DNA of 64,000 nucleotides from Candidatus Woesearchaeota archaeon (GTDB lineage: Archaea > Nanobdellota > Nanobdellia > Woesearchaeales > WAPY01). The DNA lies in NCBI GenBank assembly GCA_049700835.1, contig JBNAUL010000001.1, positions 246,043-310,042 of the forward strand. Reading direction: 5' to 3'. Shown here one piece after another: positions 38,751 to 64,000 of the stretch (within the stretch, counting starts at the first letter, position 1; every line of letters starts with the position of its first letter). Both the position numbers and the translations under genes were made by a program. The notes beneath the pieces were generated by a model. The model was not told the origin of the DNA. It did no database searches and was given only the letters and a program-made list of their open reading frames with translations.

Positions 38751-40463
38751 ATGAAAAACATAGAAGTTGCAAATTTGTTATATGACATTGCTGACATTCT
38801 TGAAATACTTGGAGAAGCATTCAAACCGCAAGCATATAGAAAAGCTGCAAAGTCAATAGAGAGTTTAGGCGAAGACATTGAGGACTACTATAAAAACGGC
38901 AAATTGAGGGAAATTCCAGGAGTAGGAGAGAGCATAAGCGAGAAGATAAAAGAGTTCATAGCAACAGGAAAATCAAGTTATTATGAAGAACTCAAGAAAA
39001 AGATTCCAGAGGGAGTTGCAAGTTTAATAGAAATACCTGGAATGGGGCCTAAAAAGGCAATTTACTTATACAAGACATTGAATATAAAATCAATCGAGGA
39101 TTTGGAAGAAGCAGCAAAGAAAGGAAAATTGAAAGAGCTCAAAGGTTTTGGAGAAAAGAGCGAACAGGATATTCTAAAAGGAATAGAAATCCTGAAGAAG
39201 GGGCAGGAAAGATTTCTTTTAGGAGTTGCTCTGCCAATCGCAGAGGACATAGTTAATAGATTAAAAACCCTGAAAGAAGTTCAGAGGATAAGCATTGCAG
39301 GCTCTCTGAGAAGGATGAAGGAAACGATAGGAGATGTTGATATATTGGTGGTCTCGAAAAATCCAGAACCTGTAATGAATTATTTTACAAGCATTAAGGA
39401 GGTTAAAGATGTTATTGCAAAGGGAAAGACAAAGTCATCTGTAATATTGAACAGCAATTTGCAGGTTGATATAAGAGTCGTTGAAGATGAGAGTTTTGGT
39501 TCTGCTCTGCAGTATTTTACAGGAAGCAAAGAACACAACATTGCTTTGAGGGAGATATGCAAAAAAAAGAATTTGAAATTGAGCGAGTACGGGCTTTTTG
39601 ACAGCAAGAACAAAAGGATTGCAGGAAAGAATGAAGAAGAAGTTTACAAGAAGCTTGGGATGCAGTTCATAGAACCAGAACTTAGGGAAAACAATGGGGA
39701 GATAGAAGCTGCCCTAAAATGGAAATTGCCAAAACTTTTAGCATACGATGATGTGAGAGGGGACTTGCATGTCCACAGCAAATGGAGCGATGGAGTTGAT
39801 GAAATAAGGGAGGTTGCAATAGAGGCAAAAAAACTCGGCTATGAATACATCGCAATAACAGATCATTCAAAATCTCAGAGAATTGCCAGAGGACTTTCAG
39901 AACAAGATTTGGAAAAGAGAAATAGGGAAATAGATTCCTTGAATGAAAAGCTTCCAATAAATATATTGAAAGGCGCTGAGGTCGACATTCTTCCAGACGG
40001 AAGTTTGGATTATGATGACAGAGTGCTAAAAAATCTTGATTTAGTGATAGTTTCAATACACTCTAGGTTCAAATCAACAAAGGAGGAAATGACAAATAGA
40101 ATATTAAAAGCGCTTGACAACCCCTATGTAAACATCTTGGGGCATCCGACAGGAAGAATAATAACATCGAGGATTGAATATGAGGTAGATATTGACAGAA
40201 TAATAGAAAAGGCAAAATCAAACAGGATTGCATTGGAAATAAACTCAAATCCTGAAAGGTTGGATTTAAGGGATACCTATGTAAGAAAAGCAGTAAATTC
40301 TGGCGCAAAGCTTGCAATAGGAACTGATGCGCATTCAAAACTCCATCTCCATTTTATTAAATTTGGGATTGCCACAGCAAGGAGGGGATGGGCTGAAAAG
40401 AAGGATGTCATCAATGCTATGAGCTTTAAAGAACTCAACAAATTCTTGAAAAAAACAGAGTAG
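38751..40463 (+). CDS. polX: DNA polymerase X / PHP 3'-5' exonuclease
   Basis: HhH motifs, AGSLRR.KETIGDVD, YFTGSKEHN, DLHVHS.WSDG, ITDHS, TDAH. Confidence 0.95.
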   Translation: MKNIEVANLLYDIADILEILGEAFKPQAYRKAAKSIESLGEDIEDYYKNGKLREIPGVGESISEKIKEFIATGKSSYYEELKKKIPEGVASLIEIPGMGPKKAIYLYKTLNIKSIEDLEEAAKKGKLKELKGFGEKSEQDILKGIEILKKGQERFLLGVALPIAEDIVNRLKTLKEVQRISIAGSLRRMKETIGDVDILVVSKNPEPVMNYFTSIKEVKDVIAKGKTKSSVILNSNLQVDIRVVEDESFGSALQYFTGSKEHNIALREICKKKNLKLSEYGLFDSKNKRIAGKNEEEVYKKLGMQFIEPELRENNGEIEAALKWKLPKLLAYDDVRGDLHVHSKWSDGVDEIREVAIEAKKLGYEYIAITDHSKSQRIARGLSEQDLEKRNREIDSLNEKLPINILKGAEVDILPDGSLDYDDRVLKNLDLVIVSIHSRFKSTKEEMTNRILKALDNPYVNILGHPTGRIITSRIEYEVDIDRIIEKAKSNRIALEINSNPERLDLRDTYVRKAVNSGAKLAIGTDAHSKLHLHFIKFGIATARRGWAEKKDVINAMSFKELNKFLKKTE

Positions 40464-43345: not shown

Positions 43346-44557
43346 ATGTTATCGGACTATATTAATTTGGTTTTTTCGAACTTTATACACAGGAAAATGC
43401 GTTCTTGGTTGACAATTATAGGAATCTTTATAGGAATAACATCCATAGTTGCTTTGATAAGTTTAAGCCAAGGATTCAAGAATGCAATGAACGAGCAATT
43501 TGAAATGATAGGCTCTGACAAGATAATATTGACTGCGAAAGCAGGTTTCTTTGGAATTGGTTCTGGACTTGTCTTAACAGAGCGAGATTTGGAAGCAATA
43601 AGAGACACCCCAGGAGTAATAGAAGCAGCAGGTTTTTCATTTAAAATAGCGCCTGTTTTATTTGAAAGAGAAGTTAAGTATATTTACATTACAGGAGTGC
43701 CTACTGACAGCTCAAAGAAAATTCTTGACGAGATGCAAAACATAAAAATATCTTCTGGGAGAAACCTTATGGAAGGAGACCGCAAAAAAGCCCTTGTTGG
43801 TTATTATCTGTGCAACAAAAACCTGTTCAAAAAGAATGTTAAAGTTGGTGATAAGTTAGTAATCAACGGGGAAAGTTTTGAGGTAGTAGGGTGTTTGGAG
43901 ACATTTGGCAACAGACAAGATGACAACAACATAATGATTCCATTGAGCGATGCTAAGGTTGTTTTAAACGAGCCAGAAAAGTATTTTGAGATAGTTTTAA
44001 AGGTCTCAGATGCTTCTGAAATTGAAAAAATTTCTGAGAGCATCGAAAAAAGGTTGAGAAAGCTTCACAATGTAAAGAAAGGAGAAGAAGATTTCAGCAT
44101 ACAAACAAGCCAAGACATAATGAGGTCAATGAATACAGTGCTGTTGATAGTGCAAATAGTATTTTTAGGAGTTGCTTCTATTTCTCTCTTGGTTGGTGGG
44201 GTTGGGATTATGAATACTATGTATACTTCTGTTTTGGAGCGCACAAGAGATATTGGAGTTATGAAGGCAGTTGGAGCAAAGAACTCTGACATACTTCAAC
44301 TATTCCTAGTAGAATCAGGCCTATTGGGACTTACAGGAGGAATAATAGGAGTTTTGTTTGGAATTTTGATTGCAAAAGCAGTTGAGATTTTTTCAACAGT
44401 TTATTTTGGAACCATGTTATTAAAAGCAAACATAAGTTTCAGCTTAATCTTTGGTTCGATATTATTTTCCTTTTTGCTTGGAGTAATCTCAGGGGTTACT
44501 CCTGCGCTGCAAGCATCAAGACTAAAACCAACAGAAGCTTTGAGGTTTAATCTCTAA
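43346..44557 (+). CDS. ABC transporter permease (MacB/FtsX family)
   Basis: RSWLTIIGIFIG, VGGVGIMNTM..SVLERTRDIG.MKAVGA, PA..AS.L.P.EALR. Confidence 0.93.
   Translation: MLSDYINLVFSNFIHRKMRSWLTIIGIFIGITSIVALISLSQGFKNAMNEQFEMIGSDKIILTAKAGFFGIGSGLVLTERDLEAIRDTPGVIEAAGFSFKIAPVLFEREVKYIYITGVPTDSSKKILDEMQNIKISSGRNLMEGDRKKALVGYYLCNKNLFKKNVKVGDKLVINGESFEVVGCLETFGNRQDDNNIMIPLSDAKVVLNEPEKYFEIVLKVSDASEIEKISESIEKRLRKLHNVKKGEEDFSIQTSQDIMRSMNTVLLIVQIVFLGVASISLLVGGVGIMNTMYTSVLERTRDIGVMKAVGAKNSDILQLFLVESGLLGLTGGIIGVLFGILIAKAVEIFSTVYFGTMLLKANISFSLIFGSILFSFLLGVISGVTPALQASRLKPTEALRFNL
44166..44293 (+). repeat. 128-bp exact repeat, copy 1 (copy 2 at 45403-45530)
   Basis: Base-by-base identical between the two permease genes. 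Confidence 0.95.
44485..44530 (+). repeat. 46-bp exact repeat, copy 1 (copy 2 at 45722-45767)
   Basis: AATCTCAGGGGTTACTCCTGCGCTGCAAGCATCAAGACTAAAACCA in both permeases. Confidence 0.95.
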
Positions 44558-44558
44558 A

Positions 44559-45791
44559 ATGATAAACGATTATTTTTTGTTTGTTTTGAAGAATCTTGTA
44601 AGCAGGAAATTGAGGACAGTTTTAACTCTCATAGGAATAATGATTGGAATAACAGCCATTGTTTCATTAGTAACATTAAGCCAGGGAATGCAAAACGCCA
44701 TAGAAGAACAATTCAAGATAATAGGAGCGAACAGAGTAATAATATCTCCGGCATCTTCAACAGGAATTAGAGGAGGATTTGTATCAAGTTTATCAACGAT
44801 AAAACTCACGAAAAGAGATGTTGAAACGATAAGAAAGGTTCAAGGAGTTGAATACGCGTTTGGAAGGACGCTTAGGATTTACAATGCAATATTCAAAAAC
44901 GAACAAAAACAGAGCTACATTCTTGGGCTGCCTACAGACAAAGAAACGCTTTCTTACATAAAGAAGATTAGCAATTTTGAGGTTGAATACGGAAGGCAGA
45001 TTGAGCAGGGAGAAAGAAAGGTTGCTGTTCTTGGATACGATGTTGCGCACACTCTTTTCAAGAGAGAAATAAAAACAGGGGATGAAATAAAGATAGAAAA
45101 CAATTATTTCAAAGTTGTTGGAATACAAAAAAAACTTGGCTCTGAAGCGTTTGACAAAATCATAAGGATTCCAGAAGAAGATATAAGGGAGATAAGCAAT
45201 GATTTGGCAAAAGACGAAGTTTCAACAATAATCGCTTTTGTTTCTGAAAATTTTGAACCAGATGAAGTTGCTGAGAGCATAGAAAAGGCTTTGAGAAAAT
45301 CAAGAGATGTCAAGGAAGGCCAAGAGGATTTCACAGTTCAGACAGCAAAGCAAATAGTTGACACATTCAAAAATGTTCTTTTAATTATACAAATTTTATT
45401 GATAGGAGTTGCTTCTATTTCTCTCTTGGTTGGTGGGGTTGGGATTATGAATACTATGTATACTTCTGTTTTGGAGCGCACAAGAGATATTGGAGTTATG
45501 AAGGCAGTTGGAGCAAAGAACTCTGACATATTCATTATATTTCTCCTTGAATCAGGCTTGTTAGGGCTTACCGGAGGAGCAATAGGAGTAATCTTTGGCT
45601 TGCTTATAGGAAAATCAGCAGAGATAGCTGCGCAGCAGCTTCTAAATTCAAGAATTTTGGTTATAAGTTGCCCTTATTATTTTATCATCGCAACTCTCAT
45701 CTTTTCCTTTCTGATAGGAGCAATCTCAGGGGTTACTCCTGCGCTGCAAGCATCAAGACTAAAACCAGCAGACACTCTAAGGTATGAATAA
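44559..45791 (+). CDS. ABC transporter permease (MacB/FtsX family), paralog
   Basis: Same motifs as the upstream permease. Confidence 0.93.
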   Translation: MINDYFLFVLKNLVSRKLRTVLTLIGIMIGITAIVSLVTLSQGMQNAIEEQFKIIGANRVIISPASSTGIRGGFVSSLSTIKLTKRDVETIRKVQGVEYAFGRTLRIYNAIFKNEQKQSYILGLPTDKETLSYIKKISNFEVEYGRQIEQGERKVAVLGYDVAHTLFKREIKTGDEIKIENNYFKVVGIQKKLGSEAFDKIIRIPEEDIREISNDLAKDEVSTIIAFVSENFEPDEVAESIEKALRKSRDVKEGQEDFTVQTAKQIVDTFKNVLLIIQILLIGVASISLLVGGVGIMNTMYTSVLERTRDIGVMKAVGAKNSDIFIIFLLESGLLGLTGGAIGVIFGLLIGKSAEIAAQQLLNSRILVISCPYYFIIATLIFSFLIGAISGVTPALQASRLKPADTLRYE

Positions 45792-48309: not shown

Positions 48310-48765
48310 TCACTCTTCTTTTCTTTTTATTAGAGTTGATTTTTCTTCTGGAAGCTTTGATTTGACGAGTTCTAAAACTTTTTTACAGATAGACTTTTTA
48401 ACAGGAACAACTATTGGAAATGCGTAGTCAAACAAGAAACCCTTGAGCAGGATAATGCATTTTTCCTTTTCATGAATTACTTCAAAGCATTTAAAGTAAC
48501 TCCATTTGTAACTGAAGAATCCTGCTCTTATCATGCTTTCATTCAAATAAAAATGGAGTTTCCAATTGATTGGATGCCTGAAGTAGGTGTCGTAGAACAT
48601 TACAATCAGAAAGATGTTTATTAATAAGAAAAGATAAAAACCAATTACTTCTAAAAATAAGAAAATGAAATTTAAAAATATTATCAAGAGGAGAATGAAC
48701 AGGAAAGCGTCCCTTCTGTATCTCAATACATCGTTGCTGTTTGAATAAAAACTTATGCTTTTCAT
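48310..48765 (-). CDS. Hypothetical membrane protein (2 TM)
   Basis: 151-aa ORF directly downstream of tRNA-Thr. Confidence 0.6.
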   Translation of the reverse strand: MKSISFYSNSNDVLRYRRDAFLFILLLIIFLNFIFLFLEVIGFYLFLLINIFLIVMFYDTYFRHPINWKLHFYLNESMIRAGFFSYKWSYFKCFEVIHEKEKCIILLKGFLFDYAFPIVVPVKKSICKKVLELVKSKLPEEKSTLIKRKEE

Positions 48766-48791
48766 TTTTTGTTTCTCTCTTTTGCTTATTA

Positions 48792-48864
48792 AGCCCCTAC
48801 TGGGATTTGAACCCAGGATCTGCTGCTTACGAGGCAGCTGCTCTGACCACTAAGCTATAGGGGC
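48792..48864 (-). tRNA. tRNA-Thr (CGT)
   Basis: GCCCCTA acceptor stem, GCTGC-CTCGTAA-GCAGC anticodon arm, TTCAAAT T-loop; no encoded CCA. Confidence 0.95.
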
Positions 48865-48931
48865 TTTTGGTTATTTAAATCTTCTTTTATTCTCTAATCT
48901 TCCTTTTTATTTTTTACGGTCCGACTGCTTC

Positions 48932-49507
48932 TTACGGTCCTACTGCTGTGTTCAACGGAGTTGCTGATGCTGCGATGCAGTTCTCAACAATTATCTTATC
49001 GCTCTCTGTTTTTGAAGGAAGCGAAAATGAAGAGCACGAAAATTCGTATTCATATGAACCTTGGCAGGCAGAATTTTTTATTTCAAGCAACTTTTTATTC
49101 TTATTGCTTGCATTGTATATTCTAACAATCGCGCAATCATAAAAAAATTCCAAAAAACTGCTCGTTTCTTTCATCAAGGAATCTTTGTAATTCTTGTCCT
49201 TTGCATACAGAACTATCAAATCTCCAATGTTCTGCTGCTGGTTGTTTATCAAGACAGGTTTTCTCAAATAACTGAGCAGAGCATTGTTGGATTTCACTCC
49301 AGAAGTCATGTTTGAGATTATCTGATTTTCATTGTTGCCACAACCCTCTAATTTGAATATTAAAAAGAATACAATGGCTGTTAAAAAGGTAAAAATTATT
49401 GCAATGATGTCAACTAACCCTTCCATAACTAACTGCGATTTTTTGTTGCAATTTTTTGTTCTTCTCTTGAATTTCATTTTAGGTTTTATCCTTCTTTTTG
49501 CATTCAA
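48932..49507 (-). CDS. Pilin-like protein (class III signal peptide-like)
   Basis: Basic leader NKKSQ then hydrophobic helix; Cys-containing C-terminus. Confidence 0.7.
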   Translation of the reverse strand: MNAKRRIKPKMKFKRRTKNCNKKSQLVMEGLVDIIAIIFTFLTAIVFFLIFKLEGCGNNENQIISNMTSGVKSNNALLSYLRKPVLINNQQQNIGDLIVLYAKDKNYKDSLMKETSSFLEFFYDCAIVRIYNASNKNKKLLEIKNSACQGSYEYEFSCSSFSLPSKTESDKIIVENCIAASATPLNTAVGP

Positions 49508-50067
49508 ACCTGCTCCATTAAAATTTCAACTTCCAATACAGCATTGTAGAACTTGTCTTTGTCCTTTACAATTATAACTTCCCTCATAATGTTCCTCTTT
49601 GTTGAACCTTTTCCTGAAAAATAACTTCTGGTTAGCATATCCTGATACCTTTCATCATTAAATATTATTTCTTTCAGAACATTGCCGTCCTTTGTTTTTA
49701 TTGATAACTTCATAGACATATACTTGTTGTATTCAAAATAGAATATCTTGTTAAGATTTTCAATATTGAAATTTTCAAGTTCAATGATTCCAGGATGATA
49801 TGTTGAGCCGTCATAAAAACTTATTTCTTTGCTGTAAATCAGTTTTTGGGTTTCAACAAAGGATTTTAACTTGCTTATGTCTTTTTGGCTTGACAGGAAG
49901 TTATAAACAAAAATCCATGCAGTTAAGAGCACAAGCGTCAACAAAACCATCTTTGGAATAAAGTTTATTGCTGCCAAAACAGTGCTTCCTGATTTTCCAA
50001 GACAGAACTTCTTGTTTTTAAATATCATTTTAACCAACAATGCCAATCGCATTGCCTTTTTTCGCAA
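49504..50067 (-). CDS. Pilin-like protein
   Basis: Basic leader GKSG then hydrophobic helix; overlaps neighbours. Confidence 0.65.
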   Translation of the reverse strand: MRKKAMRLALLVKMIFKNKKFCLGKSGSTVLAAINFIPKMVLLTLVLLTAWIFVYNFLSSQKDISKLKSFVETQKLIYSKEISFYDGSTYHPGIIELENFNIENLNKIFYFEYNKYMSMKLSIKTKDGNVLKEIIFNDERYQDMLTRSYFSGKGSTKRNIMREVIIVKDKDKFYNAVLEVEILMEQV

Positions 50068-50449
50068 TGCTCAAACTTTCATTCAAATCCTCAAAAATTA
50101 TTCTTTGATTTGAGTTTTTTGAAAACCAATAACTGACAGGAGTTTCCTTTTCAAAAAAACTTACAAGAACAGAATTGTTTACAATATTTATCCTTGCGCC
50201 TATTTTTGAAGTGTTTATCGGATAATTGCACTCGAGGTCTCCTTTAGCAGACTGCGCTGCCTCAATCAACAACGAGATATCCCTTGAAAGAAACAACTCC
50301 TCATAAGCCTTGTTCTTTGCAAACCTTGAAACATAGATTATCAGAGCAATTAGAATTATTGCTACAATTAACAAATTTCCAAGTTCTATCAAACTCCAAT
50401 CAGTAGAACCTTTCTTTGTTTTTTTAAATTTCATTTTGATAAATTTCAA
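50030..50449 (-). CDS. Pilin-like protein
   Basis: KTKKG|STDWSLIELGNLLIVAIIL. Confidence 0.7.
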   Translation of the reverse strand: MKFIKMKFKKTKKGSTDWSLIELGNLLIVAIILIALIIYVSRFAKNKAYEELFLSRDISLLIEAAQSAKGDLECNYPINTSKIGARINIVNNSVLVSFFEKETPVSYWFSKNSNQRIIFEDLNESLSIAKKGNAIGIVG

Positions 50450-50451
50450 TT

Positions 50452-51084
50452 TTAAGGTTTGTATTCTGAAATAACAACATCATTTCCAACCCTTTTTAAT
50501 GAAAGCACTATTTTGCTGTCATCATCTTTGCTAAAGTAAGCAAGTGGGTTATTTAACATAAACAAATAATAACCTTTACTGATGTCGTTGTTGTCTATTT
50601 GCGCACCAAAATTATATTTTAGTTTTTCAACAACTCTTATGTTTTCAATACTATCACTTAGAATCTTGCAATCCTGAAATGATCTGCAATCATCTTTTTT
50701 CTTACAAACGCATATGCAAGCATTATCTCCGCAAATCTTCGGCTTGTCAATCAATTTGTTTCCGCTCTCAAAAGTGGACAATTTTCCTCTCACAGCATAA
50801 TCCTTAAAACCATTTTTTCCAAAACCAACAACTATGAAATTATCTATCAAAGCAAAGAATTCTGTTGCATTGTTTCCATCTTTTAAGAGATTGTTATTTA
50901 TAGTGTTGAAAAGTCTATTAAAGGATTGGCTTACCATAAACCTTGCTTTATTATTAGATAGGTATGGATAAATTAACAAAGAAATAATGCTAACAATAGT
51001 TATCACTACAATTACTCCAATCATTGCTCCTCCTAAATTTTTTAAACTCTCTTCGGTTCCACCACTTCCTTCTCCATTGCTCAT
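50452..51084 (-). CDS. Pilin-like/membrane-anchored Cys-rich protein
   Basis: N-terminal TM; C.DNACICVC....C....C motif; GAGGA RBS. Confidence 0.7.
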   Translation of the reverse strand: MSNGEGSGGTEESLKNLGGAMIGVIVVITIVSIISLLIYPYLSNNKARFMVSQSFNRLFNTINNNLLKDGNNATEFFALIDNFIVVGFGKNGFKDYAVRGKLSTFESGNKLIDKPKICGDNACICVCKKKDDCRSFQDCKILSDSIENIRVVEKLKYNFGAQIDNNDISKGYYLFMLNNPLAYFSKDDDSKIVLSLKRVGNDVVISEYKP

Positions 51085-51093
51085 AAAATCCTC

Positions 51094-52011
51094 TTAGCAC
51101 TTTAGGTTTTCTTTATTACATTCTTTTCCTGACTTAAAATCCTTACTATCAATAATATCAAAAATAACGCTTTTACACTTGTTGTGTCCTATTAGATTAA
51201 AACTGAATGGTAAGTTTGCAGTGCAGGTTTTAACTTTGTTATTATTTTTAATTGAACAATAACCAAGAGTTTTTTTATTGTAAGTATCAATTATCTCAAA
51301 ATTGAGATAAGCATTACTTGCAAACGAATTAGAGTTACAATCAGTCATAGCATAAGGTTCACTAAAACTTTTCCAAACAATTGTGTATGGTTGTTTTTCA
51401 TAGTTGCCCAAATCCCAGCATATTGTTGTTATGTCGTTGTCAGGTTTCTCCAATTTTATTTCGGTAAGGCTCTTTTTGCACAAATCGTAATATGAATAAT
51501 CAACTGTATTGACTTCATAATCATACTTTCTAAGATACGCTTCAACTATCTTAAAGCAAACATTGAGTTTTTTGTTCTTGCAGCATTCGGTTCCATGAAG
51601 AGTTACAACAAAATTCTTGCTGTTGTTACAATCAATAGCCTTTTTGTTTTTGTCTTTAATATTCACTTTTAACAATTCGCAATCAACATGCCCTTGGTTG
51701 TCTGTTTTTTCTTTCAAACAATCAAAACTTACACTGTAATTCGCATCTCCATACTGAAAATCCGCCCAATCACCAAACTTTAAGGAGAACTCTTCATTGT
51801 TTTTAGTTTCCTTGCTAAGATAGTCACTAACTTCCTTTAAAGCAATTTCTTCTTCGCTCTTTGTTTCATTAATTGAAGTGTTTATTACACTTCTGCCGTG
51901 AGCTACAACATTGTATATTATTCCTAAGAGCACCACTCCGACTGTTAGAACTAGAACAGTAATAACTATTGTGTTTATACTTAGTTCTATTCCTTTCTTT
52001 TTTAAAAGCAT
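51094..52011 (-). CDS. Pilin-like protein with Cys-rich ectodomain
   Basis: KKKG|IELSINTIVITVLVL; GGAGG RBS. Confidence 0.78.
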   Translation of the reverse strand: MLLKKKGIELSINTIVITVLVLTVGVVLLGIIYNVVAHGRSVINTSINETKSEEEIALKEVSDYLSKETKNNEEFSLKFGDWADFQYGDANYSVSFDCLKEKTDNQGHVDCELLKVNIKDKNKKAIDCNNSKNFVVTLHGTECCKNKKLNVCFKIVEAYLRKYDYEVNTVDYSYYDLCKKSLTEIKLEKPDNDITTICWDLGNYEKQPYTIVWKSFSEPYAMTDCNSNSFASNAYLNFEIIDTYNKKTLGYCSIKNNNKVKTCTANLPFSFNLIGHNKCKSVIFDIIDSKDFKSGKECNKENLKC

Positions 52012-52012
52012 T

Positions 52013-52138
52013 TTAAACCTCCATTTTTAATAGAGGAGCAAGCAGATTCTTTAATGGCGGAAAAACAATAAAGATAAGCACTAATAAAACAATCAGCGCT
52101 ATCAAGAATTTTATTATCGTTGAAAGCGTAAGTTCCAT
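52013..52138 (-). CDS. Small pilin-like hydrophobic peptide (41 aa, not in ORF track)
   Basis: MELTLSTIIKFLIALIVLLVLIFIVFPPLKNLLAPLLKMEV; GAGGTG RBS. Confidence 0.6.
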   Translation of the reverse strand: MELTLSTIIKFLIALIVLLVLIFIVFPPLKNLLAPLLKMEV

Positions 52139-52206
52139 TAAAACACCTCTTTTTGCTTTTTACTATTATTTTTTTTAATTTTAATTAATTTTATCCGAAA
52201 ATAATT

Positions 52207-52395
52207 TTATCTGAAAAAGAGCAGTTCCCTGATTCTTTCAACTAAGCTTATGTTCTTATTTTTTATTTGGTAAATTATAAACAAGATTACAACCAACAAG
52301 AGCAATAAAAAGATAATTGTTGTTATTACATCATGAACTTCGTATCCTTTTTTGAAAAATCTTAATTTCATTTTAACCATATCTTGATTTAACAT
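52207..52395 (-). CDS. Small pilin-like protein
   Basis: FFKKG|YEVHDVITTIIFLLLLLVVIL. Confidence 0.7.
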   Translation of the reverse strand: MLNQDMVKMKLRFFKKGYEVHDVITTIIFLLLLLVVILFIIYQIKNKNISLVERIRELLFFR

Positions 52396-52430
52396 ACTAT
52401 TTTGTTTTCTTCTTTAAAAATTTTGTTTTT

Positions 52431-53360
52431 TTATTGAGTTTGAACAGCAGGTAGTTCCTCGCAACCAAGCTCGTCAAAAGCTTCTTTTTTGTAATCCCTA
52501 AAAACAACGAATGAAATCCATTGCGGCTCTGCCTTCGCAGCATACATACCAACACCGCCAACTCCAATTCCAGCAAGAGTAAGTCCTTTCCAAATCAAAG
52601 CAGGTCCAAAACCAAATTTTGTTGTAACTACTCCGACAGCAATCATCGCGATTCCAGGAACAGCACCCTTTGCTTTGGTTAAAAAATTATCCCACGGGTC
52701 TCTGCCTTTAATGTAAGTGAAGACAATTGCATAATCCTTGCTTCTTTTAGTGTCAATGTATGCAAGGGAATTAACAACTTCTTCTTCATCCTTTTTTAGA
52801 CTTTCTGTTTTCTCTGTTTTGTAAGCAGTCAGATAATCAAAATAACTAATCCCTCCTGATTTCTTCTTTGATTTTAAAACATCAACAAAGTTATTAAGTT
52901 GAACATCGTTAGACATCTCAAAGTGTATGCTTGAGCAAACAACGCAGAAAATTCCATCCTTGTTGAAGAGCAGCAACTTGCCTTCATGAAATTTGTTCCA
53001 GCAAAGAACGGTTTCGTCAGCAACAACATCTTCTACAATACTCTTGATGTTTTGATTTCCCTTGTAATCCTTGAACTTTTCATTATTGACATAAACCCCT
53101 TCATCCTTGAAGGTAACATACCTTGTTGGACATTTTAGTTGGGTTGAAAATGTTTCTTTTGTTGCATAGGAAGATGCAGCAGCAATTTCAACGCTGCTCT
53201 TGCATTCTTCTATTTCTTGATTTTCAGAATACATTATCTTAAACTTATAGATTATTATACTTATCACAATTAAAACTGCCAAAATTATTATTATGCTTAC
53301 AATTTGCGAATACTCCAATCCGATCTTGTTTTTTTTATTGTTTTTTTTAATTATTATCAT
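52431..53360 (-). CDS. Pilin-like protein with conserved Cys ectodomain
   Basis: KNKIG|LEYSQIVSIIII; CKSSV, ADE..LCW..F.EGK, CVVCS. Confidence 0.75.
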   Translation of the reverse strand: MIIIKKNNKKNKIGLEYSQIVSIIIILAVLIVISIIIYKFKIMYSENQEIEECKSSVEIAAASSYATKETFSTQLKCPTRYVTFKDEGVYVNNEKFKDYKGNQNIKSIVEDVVADETVLCWNKFHEGKLLLFNKDGIFCVVCSSIHFEMSNDVQLNNFVDVLKSKKKSGGISYFDYLTAYKTEKTESLKKDEEEVVNSLAYIDTKRSKDYAIVFTYIKGRDPWDNFLTKAKGAVPGIAMIAVGVVTTKFGFGPALIWKGLTLAGIGVGGVGMYAAKAEPQWISFVVFRDYKKEAFDELGCEELPAVQTQ

Positions 53361-53397
53361 TTTTATAATTTACTTTTATAATTCAACATTTTATAAT

Positions 53398-54189
53398 TTA
53401 ACCATACAGTAAAGTGCAACCATTTATTAACAATTTCAACGGCGCAATTGTTACCATTGAATGATGCGTTTTTGCCAATCTAAAGAATGAGCCTTCGCTA
53501 GCAATAAAAGCAAGATAATATTCATTGTTTGTTCTTATGTTAAACTCCTCTCTTTTTATAACGTCCACTTTTGGGAGTATTGTTGCAACTCCATAAATTT
53601 TTAAAGAAATTATGTAAACATTTTCAAACACTTCTTCTTTTTTATTCTTATCAGCATTAGGATACAAGTAATCAAAGTAACTCATTTTTTTGTCTTTCAT
53701 TTCATTCTTCATAAGAAAATCCATTAATTCGCTAAAAGTTATTTCGTTGAAAGGAGCATCCTTAACATTTATCTTTGAGCAAACATTGCACAGAATTTTA
53801 TTTCCTACCAAAACCTTATTGTATTCTATTTTTCCTTCAACAAAAATGTTCCAGCACTTTGCCATTTCATCAGCAAGTATCTTCATAGTACTGTTCTTTA
53901 CTTCTTCATTGCTCAAGCCTTTATAGCTCACCTGCTTTTTATTGTTAATATAAATTCCATCCTTTTTTATAGAGATATCTTTTGATTCGCATTGTAAAAC
54001 AGCATCGCTAAAACTCAAAGCATTCTTTCCAATATAATTTTTTAAAACGCTTGCTCTGCAAGCGCTTTCTTTGGCTGATTCGTTGCTCACTTGGCTTAAT
54101 AAACCAGCTATTACAAGAAGGATAAAAATTACGATTAGAACTATTATTATTGCAACTAAAATTCCAATTCCTTTTTTGTTTTTTATCAT
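53398..54189 (-). CDS. Pilin-like protein, paralog of 52431-53360
   Basis: KNKKG|IGILVAIIIV; CRASV, ADEMAKCW..F.EGK, CNVCS. Confidence 0.75.
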   Translation of the reverse strand: MIKNKKGIGILVAIIIVLIVIFILLVIAGLLSQVSNESAKESACRASVLKNYIGKNALSFSDAVLQCESKDISIKKDGIYINNKKQVSYKGLSNEEVKNSTMKILADEMAKCWNIFVEGKIEYNKVLVGNKILCNVCSKINVKDAPFNEITFSELMDFLMKNEMKDKKMSYFDYLYPNADKNKKEEVFENVYIISLKIYGVATILPKVDVIKREEFNIRTNNEYYLAFIASEGSFFRLAKTHHSMVTIAPLKLLINGCTLLYG

Positions 54190-56705: not shown

Positions 56706-56978
56706 GTGAGCATAAGGATTCCAAAATCAATGATGCAGGAATTGAGGAAAATAGCAGAAAGGGAACACTACATGGACCTTAGCGAAGCAGTAAGGAGTTT
56801 TTTAAGGAAGAAGATGCTTGAAAGCTCAAGCAGGAAGAATTCTGTTAATTTAGAAATAAAGGATTATTTAGGGAGAATACTTGAGAAGAAAATAAGCGAA
56901 GAGAACAAAAAATTGCTGATAGAGCAATTAAGGATAATAGAAGAATTGCTTGAAAATAACAATCTTTCAAAAAAATAA
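56706..56978 (+). CDS. Ribbon-helix-helix regulator (possible ATA start at 56691)
   Basis: VSIRIPKS...EL.......HYMDLSEAVRS. Confidence 0.8.
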   Translation: MSIRIPKSMMQELRKIAEREHYMDLSEAVRSFLRKKMLESSSRKNSVNLEIKDYLGRILEKKISEENKKLLIEQLRIIEELLENNNLSKK

Positions 56979-56993: not shown

Positions 56994-59900
56994 ATGATAA
57001 ATTCAAATGAAATATGGAAAAGCGAAAGAAGCAGAACAGCAAATGCAACGCTCATAAGCATCGTTGTTTTAACTGCTTTCCTGCTCATATTCCTATTGCA
57101 GAACCCGAACAAAACAATAATCTCAGCAGTCTCAGCAGAAACAGGAGAGGACATAAATCAATCTCTCAATGATACTTTGAATGCGCAGATTAATGACAGC
57201 CAAAACAATGGAACGAATGCAAGCATAAATAATCCTCCGATTATGTTGAAAGAAATAAGCAATTACACGATTAATTATGGAGAAGAAATAACTCTAAATC
57301 TTTCAGAATACTTTTATGATCCGGACAATGATACGATCGTTTATTCAGCAGTTTCAACTCAGAACATTTCAATAACAATAATTGAAAACAAAGCATCCAT
57401 GAAAGCAATAAACAATTTCATAGGCATAGGATATGCAAAATTTTTGGCTTCTGATTTAAAGAACATAACCTTTAGCAACGAGTTCTCAATAAATGTTACG
57501 CAACAAGAAAACTATTCAAACAGCCCGCCGAACTGTACAATACCAAACATAACTTTAGTGAAGGATTACAGTAGAACAATAGATTTCAAAGAGTTTTGCA
57601 ATGATAATGAAAACCAAACTCTGAACTTTAACCTTTCAGCAGATTTAAACTTTACTCAAGAAAATTCGTTGTTCACATTCATTCCTAAAACCAAAGGAAC
57701 TTTCAACGCTACGCTGATAGTCAATGATTCAAAAAACATTTCACAATACTGCTTGCAGATTCAAGTGAAGGAGTTTTTGTTTAACATCTCCACAAACAAG
57801 CAGCAGTATCTGCCTGGAGAAGAAACATACATAAGCATAAATGCTCCTAACAATTCAATTGTCAATCTAACGCTTACAACCCCCTCTCAACAGAGAGAAC
57901 AAGAATTGATAAGCAGCTTTCCAATAACATACATATACTATGGTTCTGAAGAAGGAACATATTCAATAAAAGCAAAGGCAAGTTATTACTATGCAAATCA
58001 AGAAAAGAATTTGAATTTTACAATCAAAAGCCCGAGCAACTTAACAGCTTCGATCGATTCTGTTTCAGAAGCAAGAACAATAGACACTATAACGATTAGA
58101 GCAATAGTTTCAGGAAACTACGGGAGCGTTTCTTATGAATGGGATTTAAACAATGATAACATAACCGATTCAAATTCGCAGAATATAACATACAATTTCA
58201 GAAATACAGGAACAGCAAATGTGAGATTAAAAGCAAAAGATACTTACAAGGAAGTAACTGTTTACAAGCAAATAAGAATCTTGGGATTCTACGATGTTGC
58301 AATCATCGTGAATGATGAAAACGGTGAGCACTTAAATGCAGTTGTAAGTTTCAACAACGAAACAAAAAACACTCAAAATGGCAGTGCTGTCTTTAAAGAT
58401 GTTCTTGAAGGTGAGCATAAAGTATATATTTCAAAGGATGGATACTATGACTATGAAAGTTACATAGTAGTGTCTTCAAATAAAACAGTTGAAGTGCAAC
58501 TCGCAAAGATAAGGGAAAAACCCCGCATAACAATAATAGAACCAGAAAACAATTATGTCTTTGGCAATAAGAACATAAGCATAAAGTTCTCAGTCAGCGC
58601 TTACAGCAAATTAAACTGCATTTTATACCTTAAGAGCATTGGTGATTGGTGGATTGAAAAATCAAATCTAAAGAACATAGAGCCAAATTCAGAAGCGGTT
58701 TTTGAACTCAACTTGGAAGAAGGAAACTATACCTCTAAAATAGAGTGCTCTGATGGATTAATGAGTTCTGCAAGCAATGAGCTGAACTTTAAAATAAACC
58801 TCTCAGCAGTACAGCTCTTTGCAGGCTATGCAAGCTATGATTCAGTTTCTGTGTTTGACGATTCAATAGAAGAAATAGACAATTCAATTTCCTATGTTTA
58901 TTCCCTTAACACAGAGCTTTTGGAAACTCTTGTTAGCTTAAACATAGTAAAAGAACTTGAAAATTACAAGAAGGATGTTGAAAGGGCAAGAAGGGACTAC
59001 TTTGATTTGAGGCAAAAGGATTTGAACCAAAGCGAGTTGGAAAATCAGAGTGCTCAAATTTTAAAAAGGGTTTTAGATGCAAGAACAAGAATAGTTACCC
59101 GTGTTGTTCTGAAAGATGTAGCATCATTCATAAAATACCCAACAGAAGAAGACATCTACAATGTAACAATGGATTACTACCAAATCCTAAAACCAAAGGC
59201 AAAATATTCAGAATACAAAAAACTGAACGAGCAAGCGCAATCATTAGCAACAGTGACGACAAGAGTTGAAAGAATAGCGATTGAAAGAAAAAATTTTACA
59301 GAAGAATTCTATCTGATTAGAAAGACGATAAATCCGTCAGCAAATCTGAGCGAGATTTCTCTAATTCAAAAGATACCGAAGAGCATAGTAAATGATGCTT
59401 CAAAAATAAGATTTTTGTCAAAAACCAACATCTTGCAGCAAGATCCATTGATAGAGTTCAAAATCAGCGAGCTTGAGAACAACATTGCAACATATCTGAT
59501 AAACCTTGATATTACCGGAGAAAAGAACATGAAGGACTTTGAAGAAATAAAGGATGTCTTTGTACTAAACAAAATAAATCCAAAAGCTTCTCAAACAACA
59601 GGAATGGCAATAATTGATTTGAACAGATTGAACCTGAATTCAGATGCAATGTCCTTAAGAATATTTGTTGTAGTGCTGCTCCTGCTTGTTTTTCTATTCC
59701 TTTCTTTGGAGATAAACCCGATACTGCTTATGAGGAAAGGAAGGAATGTTGAAAAACAGATTTTCATACTGTTAGACCAAGCAAAGGAGTTGATGCAGCA
59801 CGCAAAGTACGATGAAGCAGCTTCGATATACTATGAGATAAAGCTTCTATACAATCTTTTAAGTTTCAAGCAAAAGGAGGCCCTCTACGAAGACATAAAG

Positions 59901-60101
59901 AATTTTTATGACAGCCTGAACGCAGCATATTTGGAGCAACTATTGGAAGAAGCGCAAACATCTGCTAATGAAAACAGGATTCAAGATGCTAAGAAGTTCT
60001 TGGAGTATTGCACATATGTTTATCAAATTCTGCCTCAAGAACTTAAAGAAATGTTCTCAAAAAAATACGAAAACCTGAAAAAATTTATTGAACAAAAATG
60101 A
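56994..60101 (+). CDS. Large membrane-anchored surface protein (cadherin/Ig-like, PKD, prealbumin-like domains, TM, cytoplasmic helical repeats)
   Basis: N-terminal TM; NNPP/NSPP..FYDPDND repeats; YEWDLNND PKD-like motif; many sequons; TTGMAI then TM near aa 890; A..IY.EI..LY..L tail. Confidence 0.75.
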   Translation: MINSNEIWKSERSRTANATLISIVVLTAFLLIFLLQNPNKTIISAVSAETGEDINQSLNDTLNAQINDSQNNGTNASINNPPIMLKEISNYTINYGEEITLNLSEYFYDPDNDTIVYSAVSTQNISITIIENKASMKAINNFIGIGYAKFLASDLKNITFSNEFSINVTQQENYSNSPPNCTIPNITLVKDYSRTIDFKEFCNDNENQTLNFNLSADLNFTQENSLFTFIPKTKGTFNATLIVNDSKNISQYCLQIQVKEFLFNISTNKQQYLPGEETYISINAPNNSIVNLTLTTPSQQREQELISSFPITYIYYGSEEGTYSIKAKASYYYANQEKNLNFTIKSPSNLTASIDSVSEARTIDTITIRAIVSGNYGSVSYEWDLNNDNITDSNSQNITYNFRNTGTANVRLKAKDTYKEVTVYKQIRILGFYDVAIIVNDENGEHLNAVVSFNNETKNTQNGSAVFKDVLEGEHKVYISKDGYYDYESYIVVSSNKTVEVQLAKIREKPRITIIEPENNYVFGNKNISIKFSVSAYSKLNCILYLKSIGDWWIEKSNLKNIEPNSEAVFELNLEEGNYTSKIECSDGLMSSASNELNFKINLSAVQLFAGYASYDSVSVFDDSIEEIDNSISYVYSLNTELLETLVSLNIVKELENYKKDVERARRDYFDLRQKDLNQSELENQSAQILKRVLDARTRIVTRVVLKDVASFIKYPTEEDIYNVTMDYYQILKPKAKYSEYKKLNEQAQSLATVTTRVERIAIERKNFTEEFYLIRKTINPSANLSEISLIQKIPKSIVNDASKIRFLSKTNILQQDPLIEFKISELENNIATYLINLDITGEKNMKDFEEIKDVFVLNKINPKASQTTGMAIIDLNRLNLNSDAMSLRIFVVVLLLLVFLFLSLEINPILLMRKGRNVEKQIFILLDQAKELMQHAKYDEAASIYYEIKLLYNLLSFKQKEALYEDIKNFYDSLNAAYLEQLLEEAQTSANENRIQDAKKFLEYCTYVYQILPQELKEMFSKKYENLKKFIEQK

Positions 60102-62500
60102 GATTAGGATTTTGTAGAGTAGGATGTAGGATAGGAAAATCAAAATTTTGCATTGCGCTAATTTTATTAGTTATTGGCATTTTGCTAAATATTGGAAAAG
60201 CAAATGCTTTAATCATAGAACCTCAGGAAATAAACGAGTTTGTCGCGATAAACAAGTTTTTGGAGCTAAATGTAACATTCAACAACGACGAATACCAAAC
60301 ATTGAATATAAATCTTGAAAAATCAAAAGAACTTGAGGATGTTTTAGATATAACAGAAACTTCCTTCAAATTAAATCCGAAAACATCAAAGAACATAAAA
60401 ATGCTTATTCTTGGAAATGCTGAACAGGAAATCTACTTCAACAAGAGCTTTAAGCAAGTTTCAGGATATATAACAATTCTTCCTTTAAATAAAAAAATTC
60501 CTGTAAAGATTGTAATAACTGACGGCAGAAAATCTTTGCTTCAAACAATGTTTGTAGAATTAGAGCCTGTAAACAAAGTTGTTGCTCAAGGTAGCGATTT
60601 CAAATACAAAATAAGCATCAACAACTTATTGACGGATTGGAATTACAATGTGACTTTATCTTACAAAATAATCAATGAAAAGGAAAACTTTTCAATAGAT
60701 TTGGAAAATGAAAACAACACAATTCTGCTAAAAACATCAAAGACACTGATAAAGACATTTAGAATTCCTGAAAACTTTACTTCAGGGGATTATAAGCTCA
60801 TAGTAAATACATATTATTTAAAGTACAATTCCACATACTCAACACTCTTTACTGTTCAAACGCCTCTTTTAAAAATAAAATTATTTGGTAGGATAATGGT
60901 ATGGCAGTTGATTCTTTTATTTGCCATAGCAGCTCTACTGAGTTTTGCTTATGTTCGTTATCGTGTTTTTAGGAGGTCTAGGCTTAGGTATGGTGTTTCT
61001 GTTGATGTTAGGAGTTTGCGTCGTGTTTCTGATAAGTTGGGTTTTGTTGGTAAGGTTGCTGAGGTTGGTGTTCCTTTTTATTTTGATTTGAATTTGTTGT
61101 CTACTCATTGTATTGTTGCTGGTGCTACTGGTGGTGGTAAGAGTGTTGCTGCTCAGGTTTTTGTTGAGGAGTGTTTGAAGCGTGGTGTTGGTGTTTTGGT
61201 TTTTGATCCTACGGCTCAGTGGTCTGGTTTTTTGAGGGCTTGTTCTGATGTTAGGATGTTGGGTTTGTATTCTGGTTTTGGTTTGCGTAGGGGTGATGCT
61301 CGTGGTTTTCCTGGTAATGTTCGTTTGGTTAGGGATGCTAGGGAGGTTGTTGATGTTAGGCGTTTTTTGAAGGCTGGTGAGATTAATGTTTTTGTTTTGA
61401 GTAGGTTGGAGCCTGAGGATATTGATTTTTTTGTTGCTAATACTGTTCGTGAGGTTTTTAGGGCTGGTTTTGATGAGTTTGGTGGTTTGCGTTTTTTGTT
61501 GGTTTATGATGAGGTTCATCGTTTGTTGCCTAGGTTTGGTGGTTCTGGTGAGGGTTTTGTTCAGATTGAGCGTGCTTGTCGTGAGTTTCGTAAGTGGGGT
61601 GTTGGTGTTGTTTTGATTAGTCAGGTTTTGTCTGATTTTGTTGGTGAGATTAAGGCTAATATTAATACTGAGGTTCAGGTTAGGACTCGTGATGAGGGTG
61701 ATTTGCAGCGTGTTCGTGAGAAGTATGGTGAGGAGTTTTTGAGGGGTTTGGTTAGGGCTAGTGTTGGTACTGGTTTGTTTGAGAATCCTGTTTATAATGG
61801 TGGTAGGCCTTTTTTTGTTAGTTTTAGGCCTTTGTTGCATAGTGTTTCTAGGTTGTCTGATGGGGAGTTGGATGCTTATGATCGTTTTAATGGTTTGGTT
61901 GATCAGTTGGGTTTTGAGTTGGATTCTTTGGAGGGTTTGGGTGTTGATGTTTTTGATTTGCGTTTGGAGTTGAGGTTGGCTTTGGATAAGTTGAAGGTTG
62001 GTAATTTTGGTATGGTTGAGGTTTATTTGGATGGTTTGAGGTCTAGGGTTGATAGTGTTTGGAGGGGTTTGGGTAGGGTTGCTCCTGTTTTTGAGCGTCG
62101 TTTGGTTTCTCGTGATGAAGTTTTGCGTAGTGTTGAGGAGGCTAGGAGGGAGAGGCAGAAAGCCATAAAAGAAGAAAAATCTTCTGAAAAAGAAAAACAA
62201 AAAGATAAAGAAAAGAAAAAGGAAAAGATAGTAAAACCTCTTGTTTTTGACAACGGCGCAATGGTTGGTTCAATAGAAGAATTATTAGACGCTTTACCTC
62301 CGATGAGTGTTTCTGTGTTCAGTAAACATGTAAATCAGTCAAAGAACGACATTAAGGATTGGATTGAAAAGGAGTTTAAGGATGAGCAGTTAATAAAAGC
62401 AGTTAGTGTTTTAACTAAAAAGGAGATGATAGACAACATAAAAAAATATTTAGAAGAAAAGAACAAAGATAAGAAAGAGGAAAAAGAAGAAAAGAAATAG
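60098..62500 (+). CDS. Membrane-anchored HerA/VirB4/DUF87-like ATPase with Ig-like ectodomain and C-terminal DUF5752-like domain
   Basis: Signal peptide; TM about aa 262-287; H..VAGATGGGKS Walker A, VFDPT, VYDEVH Walker B, REFRKWG, LISQ; C-terminal F.KHVN..KNDI..W. Confidence 0.85.
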   Translation: MRLGFCRVGCRIGKSKFCIALILLVIGILLNIGKANALIIEPQEINEFVAINKFLELNVTFNNDEYQTLNINLEKSKELEDVLDITETSFKLNPKTSKNIKMLILGNAEQEIYFNKSFKQVSGYITILPLNKKIPVKIVITDGRKSLLQTMFVELEPVNKVVAQGSDFKYKISINNLLTDWNYNVTLSYKIINEKENFSIDLENENNTILLKTSKTLIKTFRIPENFTSGDYKLIVNTYYLKYNSTYSTLFTVQTPLLKIKLFGRIMVWQLILLFAIAALLSFAYVRYRVFRRSRLRYGVSVDVRSLRRVSDKLGFVGKVAEVGVPFYFDLNLLSTHCIVAGATGGGKSVAAQVFVEECLKRGVGVLVFDPTAQWSGFLRACSDVRMLGLYSGFGLRRGDARGFPGNVRLVRDAREVVDVRRFLKAGEINVFVLSRLEPEDIDFFVANTVREVFRAGFDEFGGLRFLLVYDEVHRLLPRFGGSGEGFVQIERACREFRKWGVGVVLISQVLSDFVGEIKANINTEVQVRTRDEGDLQRVREKYGEEFLRGLVRASVGTGLFENPVYNGGRPFFVSFRPLLHSVSRLSDGELDAYDRFNGLVDQLGFELDSLEGLGVDVFDLRLELRLALDKLKVGNFGMVEVYLDGLRSRVDSVWRGLGRVAPVFERRLVSRDEVLRSVEEARRERQKAIKEEKSSEKEKQKDKEKKKEKIVKPLVFDNGAMVGSIEELLDALPPMSVSVFSKHVNQSKNDIKDWIEKEFKDEQLIKAVSVLTKKEMIDNIKKYLEEKNKDKKEEKEEKK
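60938..62158 (+). other. Extreme G+T (keto)-biased tract within the ATPase gene
   Basis: By manual reading, 406 of 407 codons end in T or G (exception GAA at 62117); abrupt return to A-rich codons on both sides. Confidence 0.95.
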
Positions 62501-62909: not shown

Positions 62910-63164
62910 TTGTACAGAATTAAAAAAAACCAAAGCATTGATTTCAATTTTGCAGATTTATTCAACGATGTAAATACAAAAAAAATCAATAATAAAAAGC
63001 GCAGTAAAAGAATAACAATTACAATAGATAAAAATCTGCTTAATTTTTTGGATCACCTTATTTCTAAGAGAATTTTTGCCAATAGGAGTCATGCTTTTGA
63101 ATTTTTAATAAGAAAGAGAACAGAATTTGAGAATGAAAGAGAGAATTACTATTACCTTAAATGA
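62910..63164 (+). CDS. Ribbon-helix-helix regulator (possible ATA start at 62841)
   Basis: KRITITIDKNLL..LD..I..RIFANRSHAFEFLI. Confidence 0.8.
   Translation: MYRIKKNQSIDFNFADLFNDVNTKKINNKKRSKRITITIDKNLLNFLDHLISKRIFANRSHAFEFLIRKRTEFENERENYYYLK
63066..63110 (+). repeat. 45-bp exact repeat, copy 1 (copy 2 at 63199-63243)
   Basis: AAGAGAATTTTTGCCAATAGGAGTCATGCTTTTGAATTTTTAATA in both RHH genes. Confidence 0.95.
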
Positions 63165-63297
63165 GGAACTGCTGGACTGGATAGATAACAAAATTAAGAA
63201 GAGAATTTTTGCCAATAGGAGTCATGCTTTTGAATTTTTAATAGCAAGATTGATGGAAAACAACAAGCTTCAGAGCGAAGATGAAAACAAGAGATAA
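63133..63297 (+). CDS. Ribbon-helix-helix regulator (54 aa, not in ORF track)
   Basis: MKERITITLNEELLDWIDNKIKKRIFANRSHAFEFLIARLMENNKLQSEDENKR. Confidence 0.85.
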   Translation: MKERITITLNEELLDWIDNKIKKRIFANRSHAFEFLIARLMENNKLQSEDENKR

Positions 63298-63325
63298 AAC
63301 CAAAGATTTAGGAAAAGGGAAAAAC

Positions 63326-64000
63326 TTGAAAAATCTTAAAAAGCATTTTGACGAAGGCGGATTTAGGGCAACATTTTATGCCTTGCTGGCAGCAATACTT
63401 GCAATCCTTGCAATAATTGTTCTCATACATATTAAGAATTACATTGGATATATGGCACTTCAAACAAGAGCAGGTTCAATCTCTGAATTGAAGATTGACC
63501 TACGATTGCCAGCATCGATATGGAGCGGATTTTACGGTTTAGGGCTAATGGTTCCTGGATATACAGAACAACAACTTGATGTTGCAATTGGCAATACAAT
63601 TAAGAACAAGCACTTGGTTTTTGACTGCTTGAAATACGATGAAGAAAATCCTCCTGAAATTTATGCTTCAACCTCTCCTGTCATTCTCTGGGAAACACTA
63701 AGCCCAGCAACAACAGACATGGTTGACAATTACTTGGAAGTAAGCCCTGATTACATAATGTCAGGCACAAATACCTTCACAACGACTATGACAATAAGAT
63801 TAGGAGATAGAAACATAACAAACATTCCAGCAACACATACTAAAAAATTTGGAGCTCCTGACAGCATGCTCTTTGACATTGGAGTTTTGAGAGACGCAAA
63901 CAACAACTTAGTTTTTGTAACTCATGTTACAGACTATGTCAGGGGCTTTAACAACGAACTTGTAAACTATCAAATGCTACTTCCTGTAAAATCAGATACG
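63326..64000 (+). CDS. Secreted/membrane-anchored WxGxYG-motif protein (3' truncated by window)
   Basis: Open frame from TTG 63326 to the end: N-terminal TM, AGSISEL.I, IWSGFYG, GFNNELVNYQMLLP. Confidence 0.75.
   Translation, partial: MKNLKKHFDEGGFRATFYALLAAILAILAIIVLIHIKNYIGYMALQTRAGSISELKIDLRLPASIWSGFYGLGLMVPGYTEQQLDVAIGNTIKNKHLVFDCLKYDEENPPEIYASTSPVILWETLSPATTDMVDNYLEVSPDYIMSGTNTFTTTMTIRLGDRNITNIPATHTKKFGAPDSMLFDIGVLRDANNNLVFVTHVTDYVRGFNNELVNYQMLLPVKSDT

Follow-up and report, generated by a model that had tools for sequence, protein, structure and literature searches.

The 64,000-nucleotide stretch of DNA considered here (the window) comes from a Candidatus Woesearchaeota archaeon, GCA_049700835.1, contig JBNAUL010000001.1, positions 246,043-310,042 of the forward strand. 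Near its right end, a gene for an 800-residue ATPase carries a 1.2-kb tract in which practically every codon ends in G or T (Table 1). The tract has a near-identical twin in a second ATPase gene downstream, and it very probably represents an archaeal example of GRINS, a class of skewed repeats; the sequences of the locus and its relatives show recurrent gene conversion of one ATPase domain between two old tandem paralogs. The GRINS class is already known, though unexplained, and has been described mainly in bacteria. What appears to be new is the archaeal case.

The genome containing the window, G000, is 98.7% complete. It was compared with five members of the same family (G001-G005, of which G001 belongs to the same genus), with other relatives numbered in the same series, with single loci (L numbers) and with contigs from two sequencing runs, X1 and X3. 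G041 is a third Woesearchaeota genome that has the ATPase pair.

The third codon position of the tract is restricted to two bases. In the 407 codons it is T 277 times, G 129 times, A once and C never, and G plus T make up 287, 260 and 406 of the bases at codon positions 1, 2 and 3, respectively. With K3 defined as the fraction of codons whose third base is G or T, the genome-wide value is 0.486, at which the binomial tail for 406 of 407 is about 1e-125. Four-fold degenerate sites (n=152) are T in a proportion of 0.987 and G in 0.013, while the two-fold purine sites are G in 47 cases and A in one. A first-pass annotation had reported this count, with T at four-fold and G at two-fold purine sites, and a recount confirmed it; it was also right to argue that after plain A>G and C>T deamination G would remain at four-fold sites. 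The sole A-ending codon, GAA, is probably a recent private change, because run X1, G001 and G041 read GAG there. An ACG codon, one of the two four-fold G's, is retained in G000, G001 and G041, amid four-fold sites that in the first two of these genomes are otherwise T.

The encoded protein consists of an N-terminal hydrophobic segment, a presumed extracellular region (from topology), a transmembrane helix, a P-loop ATPase, a Lys/Glu linker and a small C-terminal domain. Hydrophobic 19-residue windows start at residues 262-268, placing the start of the tract at the end of the transmembrane helix, where the first-pass annotation had put it. The paucity of Lys (10) and Ile (7) that it described is accompanied by 52 Arg and 57 Val, and the Walker A, Walker B, RKWG and SQ motifs were all located. 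The sharp edges of the tract follow the repeat, which in turn follows the conserved domain. The ATPase is of the HerA/DUF87-like (VirB4/TraD/CedD-related) P-loop type, its best match in the Protein Data Bank being HerA (4d2i, 1.8e-7). It shares with the HerA/FtsK superfamily (HerA 4d2i, CedD, TraC/VirB4, TraD) the P-loop core, Walker A, Walker B, RK.G and SQ, but differs from the named families in its weak matches, its transmembrane anchor and its large variable N-terminus. Membership in the named HerA, CedD or TraC families was rejected; NCBIfam scores are 20-29 bits against curated cut-offs of 366-800, and only broad Pfam domains pass. The protein belongs to a widespread unnamed DPANN family whose relatives are Woesearchaeota/Pacearchaeota-type records, and a literature search on this family returned nothing relevant. 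The 421-residue open frame antisense to the tract was rejected as a gene; it has no Pfam match and is a by-product of a tract that lacks TTA, CTA and TCA codons. There were no RNA datasets among the runs listed as holding the locus.

The near-identical copy that the first-pass annotation suggested looking for does exist. Within the 1,221 nucleotides of the tract the two copies differ once, by C/T. GRINS have been defined by Nivina et al. as repeats longer than 500 bp that are more than 80% identical and have both mean skews above 0.15 (PMC8256042). The repeat described here is 1,246 bp long (1,156 bp in G041) and 99.8% identical, with a mean GC skew of 0.64 and a mean TA skew of 0.52 in copy 1. 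The third-position skew with its amino-acid shift is present, as is the sign of gene conversion, namely paralogs that are closer to each other than to orthologs. The tract had been put forward as a candidate for an undescribed system, and this does not hold under that definition (PMC8256042). Between GC and TA skew, r is 0.67 over C1:305-314 kb but -0.31 inside the tract, throughout which both skews are high. At the right margin the identity of the copies extends into A-rich, unskewed sequence. The five codons before this margin end in G in both G000 copies and in A in both G001 copies.

The history of the pair can be read from its relatives. Three Woesearchaeota (G000, G001 and G041) have the ATPase pair, and in all three the gene order is unchanged and each copy retains its own type of N-terminus. 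The G001 tract is 95.8% identical to that of G000 at the amino acid level and has the same left edge. In G041 both copies lie on one contig, are 100% identical over 1,156 bp, have K3 of 0.95-0.97 and show 71% amino acid identity to G000. The genes flanking the tract in G000 and G001 are orthologous, with 72-79% DNA identity; their third-position identity is 0.52-0.61, compared with 0.97 in the tract. The G001 copies are found on contigs C26 and C68, and their ends have G001-specific variants in common. Contig C26 joins N-terminus 1 to C-terminus 2, as a pop-out chimera would, but this was rejected as an assembly collapse, the intervening segment being present on C68.

Two trees were calculated. 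For the domain, the best 80 GTDB matches were combined with loci from 41 relatives, giving a quick IQ-TREE of 93 rows after four duplicate rows had been removed; the 230 residues before the domain gave a FastTree of 91 rows after removal of three. The two N-terminus types are 25-35% identical to each other and form a copy-1 clade (support 96) and a copy-2 clade (support 99) of three genomes each. The GRINS domains, on the other hand, cluster by genome on long branches nested among Woesearchaeota/Pacearchaeota orthologs; these rows fail the composition test and their exact sister is unsure. Because the N-termini group by copy and the domain by genome, the sequences indicate that the duplication predates the split of the three species and that the domain has been homogenised since, in long-running concerted evolution. 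The recoded domain keeps 102 of the 107 columns that are conserved in 95% of the other orthologs, and the substitutions seen most often in it are K>R (15), I>V (9) and Y>F (4). Of the explanations offered by the first-pass annotation, the one that agrees with the twin, with the concerted evolution in three genomes and with the retained columns is thus its first, in which paralogous ATPase cassettes undergo repeated biased conversion while purifying selection acts on them. Almost no single silent changes separate the G000 and G001 tracts, while 5 of 50 shared Arg codons are swapped between CGT and AGG. In G013 the same domain has the opposite, C/A wobble (L059:2-310) and ends at a contig end; neither a second copy nor the rest of the domain was found in that genome.

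The skew accompanies repeat identity. Five of 97 domains have K3 of at least 0.95, each with a near-identical twin. The other 92, which include three duplicate records, have K3 of 0.20-0.75 that tracks their flanks, the domain at 0.75 having an equally skewed flank, and no skew is seen in paralog pairs whose DNA identity is 65-78%. The first-pass annotation had also suggested asking whether other tracts coincide with multicopy domains, and across G000 K3 rises with the local identity to another locus (0.48, 0.50, 0.50, 0.51, 0.59, 0.70, 0.82). It is 0.48 in unique sequence, 0.51 at 80-90% identity, 0.59 at 90-95%, 0.70 at 95-99% and 0.82 at 99% or more, this last bin being dominated by a few repeats, with the ATPase repeat among them. 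A skewed, converted patch was also found in a pair of MacB/FtsX permease paralogs in the window (Table 1); its first half is G/T-rich and its second half is not. As a control, 29 MacB pairs were compared (from 31 loci, 2 of which gave one match only). Three pairs, which are close kin, share a patch of 23-42 codons with K3 of 0.71, 0.87 and 1.00, compared with 0.42-0.51 outside, and in the remaining 26 no patch exceeds 17 codons and there is no consistent skew. Because the skew rises with local repeat identity and marks the converted MacB patch, conversion probably makes the skew, and not the reverse.

Two seemingly single tracts in G000 proved to be collapsed repeats, having exact 55-bp overlaps with other contig ends. 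Further strong G/T tracts are seen in large secreted-type genes at G000:C1:327260-327982, C1:341156-341878, C3:113650-115983 and C2:27-527, the last two being repeats that were collapsed where contigs break off. Mirror tracts, in which the wobble base is A or C, occur at C2:318165-320030 (+), C1:413138-413722 (-) and C1:23677-23964 (+), and none of them has a twin in the assembly. Runs of G/T periodicity are present in 5 of 5 family genomes, a count made without an out-group control and in which at least one run, a Pro/Thr linker in G002, is a false positive. In other lineages, 78 loci (988 kb) contain three coding repeats of at least 93% identity, one of them skewed, which are too few for a comparison.

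The strand that carries G and T is likely set by the direction of replication. The origin was placed at cdc6 for all statements on polarity; in G000 this gene is at C1:112.4 kb, where the background skew changes, and the background skew gives no clear signal for the terminus outside C1:120-490 kb. In all ten C1 segments with a log-likelihood ratio (LLR) of at least 20, about seven of which are independent, G/T lies on the strand that heads away from cdc6, and the ten include two A/C tracts on oppositely oriented genes. G041 agrees in polarity, with cdc6 at 588.6 kb and the repeat near 755-760 kb on the plus strand.

The preferred mechanism, in which the mismatch endonuclease NucS/EndoMS biases fork-polarised conversion towards G and T, is put forward tentatively. 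EndoMS acts preferentially on G/T, G/G and T/T mismatches, C/C, A/C and A/A being affected weakly or not at all (PMC4838380, PMC6159521), the specificity of the Streptomyces enzyme has been described (PMC11109965), and NucS limits homeologous recombination (PMC8228993); these papers also attribute to NucS a contribution to the leading-strand G/T bias of Corynebacterium (PMC4838380, PMC6159521, PMC8228993, PMC11109965). If strand invasion at a broken or stalled fork had a fixed polarity, the heteroduplex would always hold the leading-sense strand of one copy. Whichever of the allele pairs A/G, C/T, A/T and C/G is involved, the mismatch would then be G/T, G/G or T/T when that strand holds G or T, and A/C, C/C or A/A when it holds A or C. 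NucS/EndoMS would cut the former set and ignore the latter, so that one allele class would win conversion, with a sign that is not predicted in advance. The choice between T and G, and between AGG and CGT, would be left to ordinary AT-biased mutation. The skew would be a by-product, and the gain to the cell, if any, would be identical ATPase rings behind different surface domains. A bolder and somewhat less probable proposal is that GRINS in general may be a footprint of NucS/EndoMS on replication-polarised conversion heteroduplexes, a strand-specific keto/amino conversion drive.

The specificity of NucS/EndoMS matches the G/T versus A/C axis of the skew, and the enzyme is present both in G000 and in Streptomyces. 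The G000 protein, encoded at C2:421482-422255, has 257 residues and matches P. abyssi NucS and T. kodakarensis EndoMS over its full length. NucS is also present in 5 of 5 family members, in G013 and in G041, and is above the cut-off in 14 of 21 genomes of the order. For MutS_V there was no match in G000-G003 or G005 and only a weak one in G004. Four genomes (G007, G009, G018, G019) have strong MutS_V matches in frames of 820-850 residues and no NucS match, and NucS and MutS_V look mutually exclusive among the 21 genomes searched. NucS gave no match in G019, G028 and G042, and the paralog pairs available from these genomes show no homogenisation. The presence profile of NucS is nevertheless without power, because the enzyme is common in the order and occurs without the tract. 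In agreement with the model, the four-fold T:G ratio of G041 (0.71:0.25) matches the AT:GC of its flanks, and CGT is about as frequent as AGG in all three genomes. In the literature found, NucS repair is not linked to GRINS; the link is ours. For M. tuberculosis, reduced NucS repair during conversion has been suggested, with T>C enrichment and no strand skew (PMC13061034).

Several observations weigh against this account. Part of the 99.8% identity between the G000 copies may be an effect of consensus building in assembly. Some skewed tracts in G000 have no assembled twin, and near-identical repeats in other lineages (L076 at 99% and L112 at 95%) are unskewed. The polarity rests on the assumption that the origin is at cdc6. 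A coding-strand rule would suit eight of the ten C1 segments just as well, and neither of the two that tell the rules apart has an assembled twin; on the opposite strand there are weak keto patches at C1:460-473 kb (LLR 9-11), and the C2 tracts at 250-439 kb depend on an unplaced terminus, the background skew there being about zero or opposite. NucS also occurs in G031 and G040, and the ATPase paralogs of these two genomes show no homogenisation and no skew. The four-fold T:G ratio of G000 is about 75:1 against a background AT:GC of about 4:1, which is more T than the model gives. The CGT/AGG swaps need disfavoured intermediates and fit fast directional mutation better than a pure filter. Several of the five phyla in which GRINS were surveyed use MutS/L. 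GRINS are reported from 53-90% of the genomes of these phyla, and both skew signs are reported on one strand within GRINS (PMC8256042).

The same conversion might instead acquire its skew from damage or error-prone synthesis, either because one strand is repeatedly single-stranded (C>T, A>G and G>T, with T as the sink) or because resynthesis is of low fidelity; the tautomer or error-prone idea of Nivina et al. belongs here. We consider this and the NucS filter about equally likely, each at somewhat less than an even chance. Damage explains the excess of T over G at four-fold sites in G000 and the CGT/AGG swaps, and is in keeping with the long branches of the GRINS clade and with the hot-spring habitat of the two best-matching runs. 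No uracil-DNA glycosylase (UDG) was found in G000 or G001, and a PolX-PHP DNA polymerase gene at window positions 38751-40463 is a candidate error-prone enzyme. However, UDG matches are present in G002-G005, of which G002, G004 and G005 have tracts, and EndoV is present in G000; loss of either enzyme as the cause was rejected, the losses being patchy and not distributed as the tracts are. A version with transitions only predicts much four-fold G, which is absent. Damage also predicts faster protein change, but compared with its N-terminus the domain shows no excess of protein divergence (0.96 at 0.83). The G000-G041 domain identity of 0.71 is close to the median of 0.70 for 186 comparable pairs in an unfiltered comparison. 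Neither faster nor slower evolution of the domain was upheld, as these unfiltered pairs are unremarkable and a filtered comparison is biased towards similar domains. A different and rather improbable explanation is selection for a repeat that stays G/T-rich for pairing or recombination, or a skew that came first, with the cassette serving as an arm for shuffling surface domains. RecA and RadA prefer GT-rich DNA, and the extreme intensity and long persistence of the skew, together with the skewed tracts lacking an assembled twin, would suit this explanation, as would the order of skew before conversion put forward by Nivina et al. But no domain shuffling is seen in the three genomes once the G001 collapse is set aside, the identical margins are unskewed, the two apparently single tracts are collapsed repeats, and the skew also marks a patch of 70-130 bp in a permease pair that is widespread and has no evident function of this kind.

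The remaining explanations are far less probable. Copy-back by a reverse transcriptase, proposed in the first-pass annotation, would account for the loss of both amino bases from one strand. Diversity-generating retroelements (DGRs) are diversifying systems with a reverse transcriptase, a template and a variable repeat differing from it at adenines, and the locus resembles them in its repeat pair and in the loss of adenine on one strand. It differs in its 1.2-kb length and in being homogenising, with identical copies in place of a template and a diversified target; mirror A/C tracts lie on coding strands, and RVT_1 was found in none of six genomes (G000, G001, G002, G004, G005, G041), making such an origin, short of a divergent or virus-borne enzyme, very unlikely. 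Replacement of the domain from a donor with genome-wide G/T skew, another of the early proposals, is about as unlikely. Sharp boundaries and a long branch would be expected of it, but the quick tree nests the domain among Woesearchaeota/Pacearchaeota orthologs, none of the 92 other domains from the best 80 GTDB matches and the loci of 41 relatives is similarly skewed, unrelated repeats in G000 are skewed alike, and the skew has outlasted a divergence of 29% in the domain among the three genomes. An artefact of assembly or sequencing can practically be dismissed. An X1 contig covers window positions 60542-62178 unbroken, taking in the left edge and the whole tract; at the right junction the overlap among the X1 contigs listed is only 30 letters, short of formal bridging. 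Contig depth over the tract in X1, 10.2 compared with 5.4-7.6, fits two copies but gives no copy number. Run X3 has a relative 98% alike in the tract, and two other species, assembled independently, show the tract as well.

The locus resembles published GRINS in having a repeat of about 1 kb, near-identical between paralogous coding regions, with GC and TA skews of the same sign that are strongest at third positions, Gly/Val enrichment and a protein that stays functional. It differs in its archaeal host and in encoding an ATPase, not a polyketide synthase (PKS) or transposase. The skew is far stronger (0.64/0.52, with 99.8% K3), has one sign throughout and is dominated by T in an AT-rich genome, and the repeat is old, being orthologous in three species, and not recent. 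The GRINS survey covered five bacterial phyla, Streptomyces and the PKSs of amoebae and choanoflagellates, and the defining paper leaves the origin of GRINS open, proposing that skew precedes conversion and raising a tautomer or error-prone idea (PMC8256042). GRINS are treated also in PMC10394414. No literature on archaeal GRINS, or on GRINS with NucS, was found in a search limited to sources other than supplements and subscription journals.

Between the two ATPase genes are two small open reading frames that look like ribbon-helix-helix regulators; an exact 45-nucleotide direct repeat (63066-63110 and 63199-63243), read by eye, is common to them, and a similar small frame is found at 56706-56978. 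Paralog 2, in its C-terminal domain, shares with the small gene that follows it a short near-identical G/T-skewed patch (K3 0.92) at G000:C1:312953-313057 and 313209-313307. At 48310-54189, on the minus strand of the window, eight genes in a run have no Pfam match; several of those translated start with a Lys-rich stretch, Gly and a hydrophobic run, presumably resembling type IV pilin signal peptides.

Table 1. Coordinates of the features of the ATPase locus and of other features in the window (window positions unless a contig is given)
Feature	Position	Strand	Basis or remark
Host ATPase gene, 800 aa	60098..62500	+	Open reading frame; Pfam DUF87 4e-12, HerA_C, FtsK; hydropathy
G/T-only wobble tract, codons 281-687	60938..62158	+	406/407 codons
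Probable GRINS copy 1, direct repeat of 1,246 bp	60933..62178	+	2 mismatches to copy 2, 99.8% identical
Probable GRINS copy 2, outside window, 4,455 bp downstream	G000:C1:311430-312675	+	Repeat comparison
Right margin, identical in both copies, A-rich, unskewed	62159..62178	+	Last 20 nt of identity
Paralog with copy 2, 1,266 aa, start in window	63281..64000	+	Open reading frame
Walker A GATGGGKS	61121..61144	+	Motif reading
Walker B region YDEVH	61505..61519	+	Motif reading
RKWG	at 61589	+	Motif reading
ISQ	at 61616	+	Motif reading
Sole A-ending codon GAA	62117..62119	+	GAG in run X1, G001, G041
ACG codon, one of two four-fold G's	61211..61213	+	Same in G000, G001, G041
Antisense open frame, 421 aa	60935..62200	-	No Pfam match
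PKD-domain protein gene, upstream	56994..60101	+	Ordinary composition
MacB/FtsX permease paralogs	43346-44557, 44559-45791	+	Pfam
MacB/FtsX converted patch, ~42 codons, K3 0.71 vs 0.42 outside	44168..44293	+	Paralog comparison
Twin of MacB patch (coordinates approximate)	45405..45530	+	Paralog comparison

The locus is unusually clean, having two copies, orthologous flanks, three species, a dose-response of the skew and unskewed margins, and it argues for an order from conversion to skew, against the one first proposed for GRINS. Tracts of this kind break assemblies, may leave composition-based bins, make false antisense reading frames and distort protein trees. If the NucS/EndoMS mechanism is true, one enzyme would explain both archaeal GRINS and their abundance in NucS-using Streptomyces. 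The process would then parallel GC-biased gene conversion, with the strength to recode an entire enzyme domain, and would last across species.

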